Shown in pieces: positions 4,185 to 52,776 of a DNA stretch of 64,000 nt. The notes beneath the pieces are model-generated. The model saw only the letters and a program-made list of their open reading frames with translations, did not search any database and was not told the origin of the DNA. The stretch's first letter is position 1; each line of letters starts with the position of its first letter. The stretch lies in the IMG/VR virus record IMGVR_UViG_2706795957_000001, positions 1 through 64,000 of that record, one strand, 5' to 3'. Source of the DNA: a virus. Taxonomy: Duplodnaviria; Caudoviricetes. Made by a program: the position numbers and the translations under genes.

Positions 4185-4257
4185 CTCCTGGTAGTCGAGT
4201 CAGGTTACGGCGCTTGCTGACGAGCGAGAGGCGTGGGTTCAAATCCCACCCAGGGGA
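4185..4257 (+). ncRNA. tRNA-like RNA 2 with non-canonical anticodon arm
   Basis: Acceptor ctcctgg/ccagggg, D stem gtcg/cggc, T arm gtggg-TTCAAAT-cccac; anticodon arm cttgc-TGACGA-gcgag. Confidence 0.75.
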
Positions 4258-4260
4258 CAT

Positions 4261-38448: not shown

Positions 38449-40376
38449 CAATCAAGTATTGGAACGGTAGCGCGTTCGTTGATCCGTCTCAGGTTCGTTA
38501 CTGGGATGGGTCGGCGTTTGTTGCGCCGCAAGCGATCTACGAGTGGGTTGCAGATGAGTTCATTAAGCGTTGGCCTGCGTCGATCACGTATCGAATGAAT
38601 AAGGTTGGGGAGTCGCACGCTTTCGCCTCGCAGGTTCCGGTTAGGGGTTGGGAGAGTGACGCTACTGAACCGGGGCCACTCTTTGACGGTTTGTTGACTG
38701 GTAGTGGTGTCACGACGGTTGAGGTTTCTCTGAGCGTGAAGTCGGGGTCAGGCTATAGCGGGTCTGTTTTGGTGAAGCTGGATGGGGTCACGATCATTAC
38801 GATTGACGCCTACAACCTGACTTCGTACACGATTAAGACGGGTTCATGGACTGGGGTTGCCACGGAGGGCCAGCAGGTCACTGTGGAGACTTCTACGGTG
38901 CATGGCGTGGGCGTGAATGCTCCGTCGTTTGTGAGGGTCACTTCGGCTGTCCCGCACAAGGTGTCGTGGGCGGACGGCTTCAATCGCGCCAACACTACAT
39001 CCAGTGTTGGGTTGGGTGACAATTGGTGGAACTTTAGTAGTTACGGCCTTAGCGAGTATCCCAGCATTAATGGCAATCAGGCCACCGGCGCTGGCGGTGC
39101 GTCGGTGTCCAACTCGGGCAACGGTGCCGCATGGAAGGAACCCGTACCGGCTGGGGTGGACAACTATTTTGTTGAGGCTTACATCCCGAGCTTGTCGTCT
39201 GGCAGTACAGGGCAGGAGCCGACGGGGTTGCTGGTTCGGGCTAATGAGAGCAGCAACCATTACAACAACACACCCGGCAGTGAAGCGGTGTTCTTTGCCA
39301 TGTCAACAGGCAACTGGCGGGTTTACCGGGCGCGCACCGCAGCGAACTCGGGGTCCACGAACCTTCAGACGGGCAGTATGTCCAACTCCGCGGGCGGCAC
39401 GCTTCGGGTAGAGGTTCACGGCGACCTGATGATTGCGAAGTACAAGGATCAGGTCATTACGGCGGCGGATATTACTGGAATTGGCGAGGGTCGCCAGGTT
39501 GGCATCCACACGAACGGCTCCAACGCTAAGCATGATGACTTCGCTTCGGGCCAGTGCGATCCGGTTAGCTTCACGGATCGTCAGCGCATTGAGATTACTA
39601 CCCCGCACACGGTGACGACGGGCACCACTACGGTTCTCGGCTGGACGACTTCGGCGGACGAGGATGCGCTTGTCTCGGATAATTCCCTGCTGATCGCGAA
39701 AAGTAATTCGTCGGCCACGGTGTCATGCTCAATTCAGCTAACTTCGACACAAACGTCGGGAACCACCACGTGGACGCTCATCATGCTGCGTAACGGAACT
39801 GCAGCGATGACCCGAACATTCGCCACTACGGCGGCGGGCCAGTACACGATTGAGGATCTTCGTTACAACGGACCTGTCGCGGTGGGGGATAGGTTTCATA
39901 TCACCGCTCTTCGGTCAGGCGGAACCTCGCCTGGTGGGACCGTGACAACGGGAACAACACTCCGCACGTCGGAGATGCTGCCCCCGTTGCGGCAGAGGAT
40001 GACCAAGAGCGGTACTGCGAGCACGCTTCAAAACCCGGTTACGGGTTGGACCTCCTCTAATGCCGACGCGCCAAGTTGGATCGACACCAACAAGCTGCGA
40101 GTGCAGGGGCGTGGGGCTGCCGAGATCTACTGGCAAGTAGATATTGGACAACGGTCCAGCGCTCAGGGACGCACCCAGCAGCTCTGGCACAATGGCACGC
40201 TTATTGACGAGTTCATCCCAGACCCGAGCGTGAATATGGTCTACCAGCGTGGCCCATTCCAGGTCGCGGTGGAGAACGATGACCTGGTCTACATGGCAAC
40301 GACTGGAACCAGCGTCTCGGGCGGCGGCGTGGTCAATGCGACCACCACCTTCATTGAGGTGGGCCCCCGATCTTAA
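38445..40376 (+). CDS. Minor tail / receptor-binding protein
   Basis: ATGA overlap; S/T/G-rich; atypical codon usage. Confidence 0.7.
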   Translation: MTIKYWNGSAFVDPSQVRYWDGSAFVAPQAIYEWVADEFIKRWPASITYRMNKVGESHAFASQVPVRGWESDATEPGPLFDGLLTGSGVTTVEVSLSVKSGSGYSGSVLVKLDGVTIITIDAYNLTSYTIKTGSWTGVATEGQQVTVETSTVHGVGVNAPSFVRVTSAVPHKVSWADGFNRANTTSSVGLGDNWWNFSSYGLSEYPSINGNQATGAGGASVSNSGNGAAWKEPVPAGVDNYFVEAYIPSLSSGSTGQEPTGLLVRANESSNHYNNTPGSEAVFFAMSTGNWRVYRARTAANSGSTNLQTGSMSNSAGGTLRVEVHGDLMIAKYKDQVITAADITGIGEGRQVGIHTNGSNAKHDDFASGQCDPVSFTDRQRIEITTPHTVTTGTTTVLGWTTSADEDALVSDNSLLIAKSNSSATVSCSIQLTSTQTSGTTTWTLIMLRNGTAAMTRTFATTAAGQYTIEDLRYNGPVAVGDRFHITALRSGGTSPGGTVTTGTTLRTSEMLPPLRQRMTKSGTASTLQNPVTGWTSSNADAPSWIDTNKLRVQGRGAAEIYWQVDIGQRSSAQGRTQQLWHNGTLIDEFIPDPSVNMVYQRGPFQVAVENDDLVYMATTGTSVSGGGVVNATTTFIEVGPRS

Positions 40377-40717
40377 GCGTTGGCCGCTTCGAATGCCTCG
40401 ATGACATCTTCGGGCACCTTGCCGCGGTCTGACACGTCGTAGCCTTCACCCCTGGCCCATTCACGAATCTGCTTGAGCTGTTCGCGCCGGCCTAGTGCAG
40501 AGGCGGCGATCCTGGTCGACCGCTTTCGCCCTCCGACCCGGTTTGCGTGTTCGATCCACTTCTCGAGCGCCTTCTCGAACTTCATGACGTTCGATGTGCG
40601 TAGGTCGATGACATAGTCGACGCCCCGGAAGGAGAACGGGACCGCGTTTGCGTCCCCGTCGTCGATGGGTCGTCCGTCGAGGTCGTCAAGTACCGATACG
40701 TGTGTTACGCGTGCCAT
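40373..40717 (-). CDS. lsr2: Lsr2-like nucleoid-associated protein
   Basis: DDLDG...F...GVDYVIDL; IREWAR..GYDVSDRGKVP. Confidence 0.92.
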   Translation of the reverse strand: MARVTHVSVLDDLDGRPIDDGDANAVPFSFRGVDYVIDLRTSNVMKFEKALEKWIEHANRVGGRKRSTRIAASALGRREQLKQIREWARGEGYDVSDRGKVPEDVIEAFEAANA

Positions 40718-40733: not shown

Positions 40734-41225
40734 CTAGGTCTTGACTAGCATCTTCAGGTAGTCATTCGTGTTCTCAATTGCCGTGGTAGCAACCCAGTTG
40801 CAGTTGCCTTGACCAGCGACGTGTTCGATTCTGTAGGGCCCAGTGTTCCACTCTTTGGTGCCGCACTTGTCCCAGAACTCAACCCACGCTCCCCAGGCCC
40901 GCAGTCCCGCCGGATCCGCTAAAGGGTTGGTAGGAAGTGACTCCAGCCGTTTGTCGAGTCGCTGGAATTTGTCGATCATCCATCGTGCTGTCATGTAGCA
41001 GTCCTGGATGCCGGCTTCGCAAACTCCCTCGTCGAGTTTGTCTTGAATCGCCTCGCATGTGGTTCCGCAGTCGGCGATGTAGGTCGGTGTCTGTGTATCC
41101 GACGCCTCGGTCGTGTGTAGCACATAGTCAGCAAGCCGGTACAAGCCACCCCCGAGTGCTGCCACCAGCGCCAGCGACGCGAGCACTGTGATGGCCTTCG
41201 TAGGCATTCCGACCCGTCTATCCAT
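40734..41225 (-). CDS. Membrane-anchored Cys-containing exported protein
   Basis: N-terminal TM; ATG 7 nt after a -10 box (leaderless). Confidence 0.65.
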   Translation of the reverse strand: MDRRVGMPTKAITVLASLALVAALGGGLYRLADYVLHTTEASDTQTPTYIADCGTTCEAIQDKLDEGVCEAGIQDCYMTARWMIDKFQRLDKRLESLPTNPLADPAGLRAWGAWVEFWDKCGTKEWNTGPYRIEHVAGQGNCNWVATTAIENTNDYLKMLVKT

Positions 41226-41232
41226 GCAGCGC

Positions 41233-41262
41233 ATGTTATCAGCATCACACATTGTTAGGCAA
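41233..41262 (-). promoter_or_regulatory. SigA-like promoter for a leaderless transcript
   Basis: TTGCCT-N18-TAACAT. Confidence 0.55.
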
Positions 41263-41269
41263 CATAACA

Positions 41270-41307
41270 ACTGAACCCCACACTCTTCGCTGAGTGTGGG
41301 GTTCAGT
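41270..41307 (-). terminator. Intrinsic terminator
   Basis: 16-bp perfect stem followed by a T-rich tail on the minus strand. Confidence 0.8.
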
Positions 41308-41389
41308 CCTTTTCTGGTGGCGCGGGCGTCAAATCGTGGGCTCCAATCTCTGTCCCCCGCGGGCGATCCATATTCAGTTGTGTTTCCCA

Positions 41390-41482
41390 TCACCAGGATG
41401 GTGGCTCTCGTGCTCTCATCTTCCCCCCTTTGGCCTCGGTGCTTTCATTTCCTTATCATGCTGGTGGCTCTCTGGCCCTCAT
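41390..41482 (-). other. Three micro-ORFs: MRAREPPA (41456-41482), MKAPRPKGGR (41416-41448), MRAREPPSW (41390-41419)
   Basis: Each has a purine-rich SD-like sequence; ATGA coupling; repeated peptide uses different codons. Confidence 0.5.
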
Positions 41483-41525
41483 CTCACACCCCTTCCGACC
41501 TGCTGCTTTCTAACTGATGCTCTCG

Positions 41526-41554
41526 ACTATAGACAGATGCTGTGCCCAGGTCAA
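41526..41554 (-). promoter_or_regulatory. Strong SigA-like promoter
   Basis: TTGACC-N17-TATAGT. Confidence 0.75.
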
Positions 41555-41680
41555 CAGTTGAGTGGGTGTGGGCTAGCGCACTCTGCGTCGGTAGGTTCTG
41601 GTACGGTGCTATCTAGCCGTAGTGCTGGAGACTAGACAGGAGATGAATTCCTTTGAATTCCAAGCCATCTGGGGTGACCC

Positions 41681-42853
41681 ATGGCGGGTAAGCCCACCGA
41701 GGATGCGCCGTGGCCGGTAGCGGTCTACAACCGCGAAGTCGGCGGATATATCGGTCGCTTGGGGGACGTCTGGGTTGAAGGACAGCTCACTCGAGTCCAC
41801 CGTCCGAGTGGTTCTGTCACCTTCATTGAGATGCGCGATACAGAGAAGAACCAGTCCATCTCTGTCACCGCTTCTCCCGGTGTAGTGCCGGCCGAAATCG
41901 CCTCCGGTGACCATGTGAAGGTATTCGGTCACCCGCAGTACTGGACTGCACGAGGAACGCTCTCGCTGCGAATCAGCCGTATTCTTCCTGTGGGGGAAGG
42001 CGCACTCCAGGCCGAAATGGCCGAAACTGAAAATAGGCTCGAGTCTGAAGGCCTTTTCCATCCGCGGCATAAGCAGAAGCTGCCCACGGCACCGAAGCTC
42101 ATCGGCCTGATCACCGCGGAGGGCAGCGACGCCGAGAAGGACGTCCTGAACGTCGCCCGGGACCGATGGCCGCACGTGCAGTTCAAGCCGTACCACATCC
42201 CTGTGCAGGGCCAACGCTGCGCAGGACGTGCCACCGCCGCCCTGAAGGCACTGGATGCCGACCCCGAGGTTGACGTCATCATCTTCGCCCGCGGCGGCGG
42301 GTCCAACCAGGACCTCCTTCCCTGGTCCGACGAGGGCCTCTCCCGGGCCGTGTTCGCCGCTAACACGCCCACGGTCAGCGCCATCGGACACGAGAACGAC
42401 AAGCCGATGCTGGACCGGGTTGTGGACCTGCGAGCTGCGACTCCGACAGATGCGGCAAAACGTGTCGTACCCAACCTGTCTAATGAGACCAAGCGTATCG
42501 AACAGATGTTCGAACAGATTGGAGGGTCGATCCGTGGTCAGGTGCAGAACAACCAGCTGCGTGTCGACTCCATGCTCAAGCAGGTCGCCGGGTCGATCAC
42601 CGGGGCCGTCAACCGCGAGCAGATCCACCTGCAGAACGCCATCAACAGCCTGTGTGTCCAGTCCGAGGTCTTCATCGGTAACCGTGAGCGGCGAGTCCAC
42701 ACGCTCGGGGAGACCCTCAACGCCCTAGACCACCAGAAGGTGCTCGACCGCGGTTACGCCGTGGTTCAGGGCATCACCGGACCGGCGCCGGCATCCGGCA
42801 CACAGTTCACCGTCACCACGAAAGACGGCACGTTCGATGCCGTCGTCGCATAG
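41681..42853 (+). CDS. xseA: Exodeoxyribonuclease VII large subunit
   Basis: VWVEGQL OB fold; DVIIFARGGGS..DL; SAIGHEND; TPTDAA. Confidence 0.92.
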   Translation: MAGKPTEDAPWPVAVYNREVGGYIGRLGDVWVEGQLTRVHRPSGSVTFIEMRDTEKNQSISVTASPGVVPAEIASGDHVKVFGHPQYWTARGTLSLRISRILPVGEGALQAEMAETENRLESEGLFHPRHKQKLPTAPKLIGLITAEGSDAEKDVLNVARDRWPHVQFKPYHIPVQGQRCAGRATAALKALDADPEVDVIIFARGGGSNQDLLPWSDEGLSRAVFAANTPTVSAIGHENDKPMLDRVVDLRAATPTDAAKRVVPNLSNETKRIEQMFEQIGGSIRGQVQNNQLRVDSMLKQVAGSITGAVNREQIHLQNAINSLCVQSEVFIGNRERRVHTLGETLNALDHQKVLDRGYAVVQGITGPAPASGTQFTVTTKDGTFDAVVA

Positions 42854-51742: not shown

Positions 51743-52776
51743 CAACCCCCTACGACCTCCTCGAGACCGGCGCCATCATCAATGGACGCGCGCAAGTCAT
51801 CGGCAAGTTCGCGAACGGATCACCCGAGTGGCACGCCGCGCGCCGCGGGCATGTCGGCGGGTCCGAGATCTCCGCGATCGTCGGCCTAAGCCCATTCGAG
51901 TCACGGTTCTCCCTCTGGCACCGCAAGAAGGGTGAACTCGAGGACGTCGAGGAGACCCCAGCCATGGAGTGGGGCACCCGCCTCGAGCCAGTCGTCTACG
52001 ACAAGTACGCCGAGGGTCTCGAAGAGGGTGAGTTCATCACCACCGGCCACACCTTCCGATGCCTGATCCCGGGGCGCGGCTGGATCAATGCCAACCCCGA
52101 CGGCATCGTCTGGGCGCAAACCGAAACCGGCGAGTGGTACATCCGTCGCATCCTCGAGATCAAGACCTCGGCCCGCGGCGAAGGCTACGGAGAGAACGGC
52201 AGCGACGGCATCCCGATCTACTACCGATGCCAAGTGCTGTTCTACATGTACTGCCTCGGCGTCAAGCAGGCCGAGCTGGCCGCGCTGATCTCCGGTGTCG
52301 ACTACCGCACCTACAAGGTCAACTACAGCACTGAAGACGTCGAGTTCCTCATGAACGCCGGCGACAAGTTCATGCACGACCTGAACAACAACGTCCTGCC
52401 CGACATCAGCAAGGATAGTACTACCTACGAGGCTGTCCGGCAGATCAACCCCGAGTTGGACCCGGACCTCGAAGTCGTCATCCCCACCGCACTGGGGGAG
52501 TACTACCGATCGATCGAGGAGGCCTACCGCGAGATCAAGGACCTGCGCTACGGCGTCCACGCAGACATTCTCGACCACGTCGGGTCCGCGCGCCTGATCA
52601 AGCTCGAGGACGGCGAGGTCCTGGCCCGCCGGCAGATGCCTGGCCGTGGCGACAAGCCATACCTGCGCTACGTGCCGCCCAAGAAGGCCGAGCAGGTGAG
52701 CGTCACGGACGCCTACGAGAAGGAGCAGGACCGGCAGGAACGCCTGGCCGCGATGTACGCGCCCGCATCTGTCTAG
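51739..52776 (+). CDS. RecE-like (YqaJ / lambda-exonuclease family) exonuclease
   Basis: EWH..RR..VGGSE, WG.RLE, ANPDG, LEIKT, YY.CQV..YM. Confidence 0.9.
   Translation: MTTPYDLLETGAIINGRAQVIGKFANGSPEWHAARRGHVGGSEISAIVGLSPFESRFSLWHRKKGELEDVEETPAMEWGTRLEPVVYDKYAEGLEEGEFITTGHTFRCLIPGRGWINANPDGIVWAQTETGEWYIRRILEIKTSARGEGYGENGSDGIPIYYRCQVLFYMYCLGVKQAELAALISGVDYRTYKVNYSTEDVEFLMNAGDKFMHDLNNNVLPDISKDSTTYEAVRQINPELDPDLEVVIPTALGEYYRSIEEAYREIKDLRYGVHADILDHVGSARLIKLEDGEVLARRQMPGRGDKPYLRYVPPKKAEQVSVTDAYEKEQDRQERLAAMYAPASV

Follow-up and report, generated by a model that had tools for sequence, protein, structure and literature searches.

A leader unit that lies before the gene of an Lsr2-like protein (lsr2) was analysed in a 64,000-nucleotide stretch of viral DNA (positions 1 to 64,000 of IMG/VR record IMGVR_UViG_2706795957_000001, hereafter the window), which is part of a complete 93.6-kb Gordonia phage genome. 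The unit occupies 41554-41262 on the minus strand and consists of a near-consensus promoter, micro-open reading frames (micro-ORFs) led by Shine-Dalgarno (SD) sequences, and a terminator. At the same position in four genera of ~90-kb Gordonia phages, one to five SD-led modules encode Met-x-Ala-Arg-[Glu/Asp/Ser/Gly]-Pro-Pro, always upstream of lsr2, and comparison of their codons shows these mini-genes to be real, conserved translational units under peptide-level selection. The leader could well be a miniature, repeated RxPP (RAPP-like) stalling leader or attenuator placed before the lsr2 cassette, a reading to which we give slightly less than an even chance. No description of an RxPP mini-gene leader unit was found in the literature searched.

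Architecture of the Leader Unit

The predicted RNA is ~250 nucleotides (nt) long, with transcription predicted to start near 41519 and the 3' end of the unit at 41262. The closest public relative of the window is phage BrutonGaster (genus Oneupvirus), which has 84% identity across the leader stretch. The features of the leader are as follows.

41554-41549, minus strand: -35 hexamer TTGACC, a sequence match; seven CQ-type relatives all have the core GTTGAC, and the spacer varies
41531-41526, minus strand: -10 hexamer TATAGT, 17 nt after the -35 hexamer; relatives keep TGTCTA-n-A-n-T
41489-41496, minus strand: SD of ORF1, predicted duplex with the 16S 3' end of -13.4 kcal/mol, 6 nt before the ATG, kept in BrutonGaster
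41482-41456, minus strand: micro-ORF 1 (ORF1), Met-Arg-Ala-Arg-Glu-Pro-Pro-Ala, 8 amino acids, with a second in-frame stop directly after the first
41448-41416, minus strand: ORF2 of an earlier note on this DNA, 10 amino acids, probably not a gene; no properly spaced SD
41423-41431, minus strand: SD of ORF3, predicted duplex of -11.7 kcal/mol (-15.6 kcal/mol at the equivalent BrutonGaster site)
41419-41390, minus strand: micro-ORF 3 (ORF3), Met-Arg-Ala-Arg-Glu-Pro-Pro-Ser-Trp-stop, 9 amino acids, the second module copy, in frame with ORF1
41332-41303, minus strand: candidate terminal micro-ORF 4 (ORF4), Met-Thr-Pro-Ala-Pro-Pro-Glu-Lys-Asp, with a TTG start and an SD, GGAG, at 41341-41344, 7 nt upstream
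41308-41269, minus strand: intrinsic terminator with 16 perfect pairs (17 with G-U), about -33 kcal/mol

ORF1 and ORF3 repeat a 38-60-nt unit at a module spacing of 63 nt, with 76% identity, and their codons 1-7 differ at three positions, all of them synonymous; relatives behave likewise, which bears out the earlier note, where synonymous differences between the two Met-Arg-Ala-Arg-Glu-Pro-Pro copies had been taken as a hint of peptide-level selection. The three ORFs that it listed can all be read as described, and the ATGA overlap and TGATG junction that it pointed out are present in the window. ORF2 did not hold up as a member of the unit, as in BrutonGaster its start has become ACG, no usable SD stands before it and its sequence has diverged with indels. 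Coupling through TGATG is not conserved, the ATG of the junction being lost in the same phage, and the frame said to stay open through the terminator was not retained either, a 5-nt indel in BrutonGaster shifting its upstream part to another frame. We infer that ORF4 is translated; its stop codon (41305-41303) falls within the 5' arm of the terminator, and in this region the window and BrutonGaster are almost identical, so that the pair offers no substitution test.

The heptamer GCCACCA occurs at 41315, 41399 and 41462, three times on one strand within 154 nt, which is far beyond chance; the whole window holds 30 copies on both strands against 11.9 expected. Every copy in the leader encodes x-Pro-Pro in frame, with CCA-CCA for Pro-Pro, and the third lies inside ORF4. 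The three positions had been reported correctly, together with a likeness to a tRNA 3' end that was rejected, as the copies are in-frame codons and neither ARAGORN (no tRNA or tmRNA in the leader) nor Rfam 15 (best leader scores of 12-20 bits against gathering scores of 48-100) gave a match. The minimum-energy fold pairs the end of ORF3 with the third GCCACCA; this pairing was discarded, as one pair is broken and uncompensated in BrutonGaster, and a 3-bp hairpin within an ORF was too small to count.

The leader promoter matches the sigma-70-type consensus at 10 of 12 positions, and its hexamers and 17-nt spacer are read on the minus strand exactly as had been proposed. A promoter-like match by itself is at chance level (2 found against 2.7 expected in shuffles), and the support for this promoter therefore comes from its conservation in relatives. 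The 16-bp terminator that had been noticed after the micro-ORFs was likewise recovered and is the longest terminator-like stem within the 12 kb scanned. Its sequence varies between genera with pairing retained through compensating changes, it is the sole helix in the consensus fold of relatives, and fold predictions of the leader gave no consistent structure besides it.

Conservation of the Modules in Related Phages

Relatives were located through the neighbouring proteins (the ExoVII-like exonuclease, gp50 and Lsr2) and not through the motif, and were verified in four genera (Oneupvirus, Smoothievirus, Bantamvirus and Mollymurvirus) and in one unclassified metagenomic viral contig (L005). Promoter hexamers, G-rich SDs, start codons and the terminator are kept across these relatives, and the spacers diverge. 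BrutonGaster keeps ORF1 with Arg2 changed to Lys, and its ORF3 reads Met-Gln-Ala-Arg-Asp-Pro-Pro-Ser-Arg, unchanged in length and with two synonymous changes. The L005 contig and the Smoothievirus group (Cucurbita, Abscondus, Culver, WilliamBoone and ~12 near-identical phages), whose exonuclease and gp50 have 66-71% and 33% identity to those of the window, respectively, carry a GTTGAC/TAAACT promoter, a G-rich SD and a single ORF, Met-[Lys/Arg]-Ala-Arg-Glu-Pro-Pro..., followed by a strong terminator. Bantamvirus (SpeedDemon, Bantam and DatBoi) and Mollymurvirus have an unannotated gap of 490-610 nt upstream of lsr2, filled by a promoter and 4-5 SD-led modules, which include x-Pro-Arg-Gly-Pro-Pro, Met-Asn-Ala-Arg-Asp-Pro-Pro, Met-Asn-Ala-Arg-Ser-Pro-Pro and Met-Gly-Ala-Arg-Gly-Pro-Pro; the type-B modules of Bantam and Mollymur read Arg-Gly-Pro-Pro. 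The Smoothie and Bantam groups have the tail after Pro-Pro-Ser-Arg in common, and their codons for it differ synonymously.

The modules are mutually in frame and separated by stops in the window and in Bantam-type phages, the frame being broken in BrutonGaster by the 5-nt indel, and in Mollymur (L047, 1299-1583) five modules are joined in one stop-free frame of 94 codons, each with its own SD and start. Either a repeat protein was broken up or mini-genes were fused, and no homologue of the fused frame was found among called proteins of 51-165 amino acids. The last short ORF of Mollymur and Bantam-type phages ends in x-Glu-Glu-Pro-Pro. In the window, BrutonGaster and Mollymur, the 5' arm of the terminator contains the stop codon of the terminal Pro-Pro ORF; in Bantam-type phages this stop comes 1 nt ahead of the stem.

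The modules are confined in their distribution. The pattern start-x-Ala-Arg-x-Pro-Pro occurs nowhere else in the 93.6-kb genome, and no such row of modules stands upstream of lsr2 in Neville, Octobien14, LeBron and Omega, Lsr2-encoding phages of four other groups. Scans of IMG/VR returned the known relatives and chance matches only; 31 further matches at the nucleotide level lacked a start codon, and a start together with an SD was present only in two Bantam ones. A scan for an SD plus the motif gave 10 hits in 185,579 species genomes and 21 loci in JGI metagenomes; these were considered as host-derived leaders and treated as chance, being by eye mostly antisense or out of frame in apparent coding regions of unrelated phyla. 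In the GenBank records examined, the leader is without a feature, or covered by a plus-strand ORF, or covered by an over-extended gp50 start, and most relatives have nothing annotated at this position.

Coding Signature and Codon Use

Among 15 distinct modules, Arg, Pro6 and Pro7 are invariant and the residue x is Glu in seven, Asp in six, Ser in one and Gly in one, the window modules having Glu only. The Ala codons comprise all four possibilities (GCC, GCA, GCG and GCT) and the Arg codons five of six (AGA, AGG, CGA, CGG and CGC), with a synonymous divergence at Ala and Arg codons of 0.77, near saturation. This variation at held amino acids therefore points to selection on the peptide and not on an RNA structure or a plus-strand gene. 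The modules are also the only SD-led ORFs containing Pro-Pro in the independently found syntenic leaders. Synonymous conservation in relatives was the check suggested in the earlier note, which had named a lack of conserved ATG codons and frames as counter-evidence; starts, SDs and frames proved to be conserved, with Ala and Arg codons varying synonymously.

Pro-Pro is written CCA-CCA, with CCA in 29 of 30 codons and a synonymous divergence of 0.067, although CCA makes up 11.7% of the Pro codons of the phage. A general preference for A-ending codons accounts for only part of this bias. An arrest of the macrolide type, with its +x+ motif (here Arg-Ala-Arg), was rejected, as position 2 is Asn, Gly or Gln in relatives and the motif is thus not conserved.

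A Possible Translation-Sensing Leader

If the unit is a stalling leader or attenuator, a host-type promoter would drive a short purine-rich RNA that carries two, perhaps three, independently initiated mini-genes and a strong terminator. Ribosomes on ORF1 and ORF3 would pause or arrest with Arg-Glu-Pro on the P-site tRNA and Pro-tRNA in the A site, through either RAPP-like short-circuiting of peptide-bond formation or ordinary Pro-Pro stalling that depends on elongation factor P (EF-P), and the rare CCA codons might sharpen the stall. A ribosome that reaches the end of ORF4 would mask the 5' arm of the terminator, so that no hairpin would form and RNA polymerase would read into gp50-lsr2; with ribosomes stalled or absent, the terminator would form and only the short RNA would be made. 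The unit would thus report the translation capacity of the host (EF-P/ABCF activity, supply of Pro-tRNA(UGG) and availability of ribosomes) to the expression of the silencer cassette.

Several features count for this reading, namely the layout of an attenuator (a promoter-proximal, SD-led short ORF, then an intrinsic terminator, upstream of genes), which is present and conserved in four genera, the residues at x, which belong to the set fully or partly permissive in ApdP, and the association with lsr2 in every relative examined. Ribosomes that translate RAPP/RGPP cores become arrested while Pro-tRNA occupies the A site. The Arg of the core is irreplaceable (PMC12992588). When x of ApdP was mutated, arrest became stronger with Gly and was partly retained with Pro, Asp, Val, Ser or Glu (PMC12992588). 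Stalling at Pro-Pro uncouples the ribosome from RNA polymerase and permits intrinsic termination (PMC5021804).

A considerable number of observations weigh against it. The RAPP-like core is insufficient alone and needs an adjacent N-terminal segment of the nascent chain (PMC12992588), and the leader modules have only three residues (Met-x-Ala) before the Arg. Among the residues that ApdP partly permits, the Glu found at x in the window is the weakest, and in ApdA it is non-permissive (PMC12992588). No antiterminator or alternative helix was found or conserved in the leader folds; ORF1 and ORF3 are too distant from the terminator to touch it, which leaves their role in a switch unexplained; and gp50 has an apparent promoter right after the terminator, so that read-through may matter little in the window phage. 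The terminal Pro-Pro ORF is decayed in Smoothie-type phages and in the L005 contig, where the single ORF ends 17-38 nt before the stem. As regards codon statistics, the nonsynonymous (pN) part is circular, the pattern used for collecting modules having required Ala/Thr, Arg, Pro and Pro, and the general favouring of A-ending codons in the leader ORFs weakens the argument for selection on CCA specifically. On balance, the interpretation offered in the earlier note (a stalling-peptide sensor or attenuator next to an Lsr2 cassette) gains support from the conserved Met-Arg-Ala-Arg-Glu-Pro-Pro units and the Lsr2 neighbour, and loses the parts that drew on ORF2, on coupling to a frame through the terminator and on tRNA-like ends.

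A bolder proposal, which we regard as doubtful, is that a nascent chain of 6-7 residues (Met-x-Ala-Arg-x-Pro plus Pro-tRNA) might be enough to arrest actinobacterial ribosomes, and that arrays of such minimal units with rare CCA codons might act as a sensor of translation status that sets the Lsr2 silencer and thereby the programme of infection or lysogeny. Should the modules stall ribosomes, no natural RxPP arrest unit shorter than them would be known, and no earlier one from a phage; the published requirement of a longer nascent-chain context for the motif would be called into question, and host translation status would be linked to a phage-encoded nucleoid silencer. The leader is also a compact and easily mutated test system of ~250 nt.

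Comparison with Known Systems

Arrest peptides of the RAPP/RGPP type comprise ApdA, ApdP, ApcA, SecM (RAGP) and seven upstream ORFs of Streptomyces lividans (PMC7897499, PMC10951233, PMC10987492, PMC12992588). The leader modules share with them the Arg-x-Pro-Pro core and its invariant Arg, with residues at x (Gly, Ser, Asp and Glu) that are fully or partly permissive in ApdP, a motif that lies 1-2 residues from the C-terminus in the window ORFs, a position upstream of and co-oriented with other genes, and an occurrence of such peptides in Actinomycetota. They are unlike them in that only three residues precede the Arg, whereas the known peptides require an N-terminal exit-tunnel segment; in that the leader ORFs (8-24 codons) contain no signal, transmembrane or hydrophobic segment, so that there would be no release by a pulling force; and in that they are tandem, independently initiated, phage-encoded and placed before lsr2 instead of Sec/YidC genes. 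The leader also has an intrinsic terminator and not an SD-sequestering hairpin, the x of the window is Glu, and the likeness drawn here is one of sequence. The leader is best filed, on these grounds, among RxPP arrest-peptide leaders, as a new variant that is miniature, tandem and phage-borne, and not as a member of the ApdA/ApdP family, because the N-terminal context and the localisation signal of that family are not found in it.

With attenuators (trpL/hisL, mgtL and mgtP of Salmonella, and the engineered Pro-Pro leaders of PMC5021804) the leader shares a promoter, one or more short SD-led ORFs with "test" codons and an intrinsic terminator before genes, with Pro-Pro as the presumed slow step, and the stop of the terminal ORF inside the 5' arm of the terminator means that the position of a ribosome could decide whether the hairpin forms. 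It differs from them in the lack of an alternative antiterminator hairpin, in having several ORFs and not one, and in a next gene that seemingly has its own promoter, and relative to trp-type attenuation its polarity (stall leading to termination) would be reversed.

Alternative Explanations

A different role, which we think unlikely, would be that of a trans-acting minigene RNA, with the abundant and purine-rich terminated RNA itself as the product. Ribosomes recruited by its strong SDs would stall or drop off at Pro-Pro once 6-7 residues have been joined; ribosomes, EF-P or rescue factors, or peptidyl-tRNA-Pro(UGG) would thereby be tied up and host translation reshaped, in the manner of lambda bar and rare-codon minigenes in E. 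coli. A self-contained unit that ends in a very strong terminator and is followed by a gene with a putative promoter of its own would suit such an RNA, as would the duplication of the module in the window and the rows of up to five in relatives, the CCA-CCA bias, and Arg codons that are mostly the rare AGA, AGG and CGA; the body of the leader RNA is 66% purine, a content that ranks it among the highest 0.016% of windows in the genome. Rare codons in short minigenes cause tRNA to be sequestered in the form of peptidyl-tRNA (PMC2490762), and the bar and rare-codon minigenes (PMC2490762, PMC8012679) resemble the leader in being phage-borne, strongly initiated ORFs of a few codons, with the rare codons CCA, AGA, AGG and CGA and no annotated protein. 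Unlike the leader, with seven conserved residues tied to a terminator and lsr2, bar has 2 codons and no conserved peptide; the effect of bar is independent of peptide sequence, whereas the leader peptide sequence is conserved. The retention of Ala3 and Arg4 and the constant position directly upstream of lsr2 would be left unexplained, the phage has no compensating tRNA-Pro, and bar-type toxicity is known only in Pth-limited E. coli. SD-like sites in the leader number 6 against 2.9 +/- 1.8, which is not an outlier, and for this unexceptional density a sponge for 30S ribosomes was also rejected. Another reading, which we hold to be quite improbable, is that the function resides in the peptides (8-24 residues, the N-terminal seven conserved), which could, for instance, bind a host or phage protein as small ligands. 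Selection does act on the peptide, Ser-Arg-(Ala)-Leu-Asp-Asn after Pro-Pro is common to the Smoothie and Bantam groups with synonymous changes and is not required by a pure arrest model, and Mollymur fuses all modules in one frame. The window ORFs, however, stop 1-2 residues after Pro-Pro, so that the shared tail is dispensable, the tails differ wholly between modules of one phage, and no homologue was found among called proteins. Unprotected peptides of 8-9 residues are usually short-lived.

Lower still in probability, and in our view very unlikely, is a non-coding regulatory small RNA (sRNA) in which the small ORFs are incidental and the conserved GAGCCACC and GGAG blocks serve as pairing or protein-binding sites. 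The unit has the size of an sRNA from promoter to terminator, its 3' segment with the GGAG block keeps 65-70% nucleotide similarity across groups, even outside any ORF (WilliamBoone), and CCA-CCA is nearly invariant at the nucleotide level. Such an RNA does not account for the variation at synonymous Ala and Arg positions, including first-position AGR/CGR changes, nor for the start codon and properly spaced SD in every module; in addition to the lack of an Rfam family, a search for antisense pairing within the phage genome gave no match of at least 13 nt and only scattered matches of 11-12 nt. With no conserved structure apart from the terminator, the repeat-sRNA option of the earlier note is thus disfavoured. 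A protein gene on the plus strand is extremely improbable. The window does contain plus-strand ORFs of 73 and 113 codons, and GenBank annotates hypothetical proteins opposite the micro-ORF leader in BrutonGaster (gene 51; L001, 4102-4332) and Bantam (gene 43; L053, 795-944). The BrutonGaster product, however, switches between two frames of the window at the 5-nt indel and has different ends, neither Pfam nor PHROG gave a match, and most relatives annotate no such gene. The complement of a strand so rich in purine would be poor in stop codons, and long spurious ORFs are therefore to be expected on it, so that both annotated genes are probably artefacts of this pyrimidine-rich, stop-poor complement.

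Neighbouring Genes and Additional Features

The leader is part of a divergent control region, from which the operon of the ExoVII-like exonuclease runs rightward from 41681 and the leader, gp50 and lsr2 run leftward. The surrounding features are as follows.

41681-42853, plus strand: ExoVII-like exonuclease, first gene of the rightward operon, with exonuclease VII large-subunit and OB-fold domains (Pfam E = 5e-56)
41506-41536, both strands: operator-like inverted repeat with 7-nt half-sites and a 17-nt spacer, spanning -10 to ~+14 of the leader promoter
41223-41262, minus strand: putative gp50 promoter, TTGCCT-18 nt-TAACAT-7 nt-ATG, of leaderless type, with no SD
40734-41225, minus strand: gp50-like membrane protein (PHROG 13269, function unknown), located between the terminator and lsr2 only in CQ-type phages
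40373-40717, minus strand: Lsr2-like DNA-bridging protein with Pfam Lsr2 dimerisation and DNA-binding domains and its own SD

The Pfam domains confirm the Lsr2 gene and with it the adjacency of the unit to an Lsr2 cassette, as had been proposed. At the conserved gp50 start (Met-Asp-Arg), a TANNNT hexamer stands exactly 7 nt upstream in all seven CQ-type sequences, with TTGnnn 17-18 nt further upstream, and gp50 seems on this pattern to have its own actinobacterial promoter of leaderless type and a leaderless mRNA. The link between leader and cassette accordingly looks looser in the window phage and the Smoothie group. Bantam-type phages have lsr2, together with its SD, within ~45 nt of the terminator, and no promoter was seen there by eye; given this closeness, the row looks like a true 5' leader in these phages. 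The GenBank starts of gp50 differ widely (Smoothie gene 63, WilliamBoone 61, Abscondus 61 and Culver 63), some of them extending back through the terminator.

The terminator also scores on the plus strand (41270-41307; 16 pairs and a CCTTTTCT tail) and could halt plus-strand transcripts that run antisense through lsr2 and gp50. In Bantam-type phages (L048, L052 and L053), the last Pro-Pro ORF contains AGCCACC, and its perfect complement, GGTGGCT, lies ~12 nt past the terminator hairpin; the two could form an outer helix around the hairpin, a pairing not seen in the window or Mollymur. The whole phage has eight tRNAs, none of them for Pro or Arg according to ARAGORN, which also reports a tRNA-like gene with an unreadable two-base anticodon at 4185-4258, inside the phage tRNA cluster.

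The operator-like repeat at the leader promoter recurs with identical spacing in BrutonGaster, the L005 contig and Smoothie-type phages. The inverted repeat CTGTCTA-(16-18 nt)-TAGACAG is present in the window both there and at 41609-41639, in the 5' region of the rightward exonuclease operon, and further CTGTCTA/TAGACAG sites lie near 52769 and 58993 and, outside the window, near 69290, 73695 and 79367. The CTGTCTA half-site is ~3x over-represented (19 found against 6.5 expected). The inverted repeats resemble the operator set of a phage regulator and may point to a shared repressor or operator, with a putative binding protein. Bantam- and Mollymur-type phages have a different repeated word (ACGCAACA) at the corresponding places.

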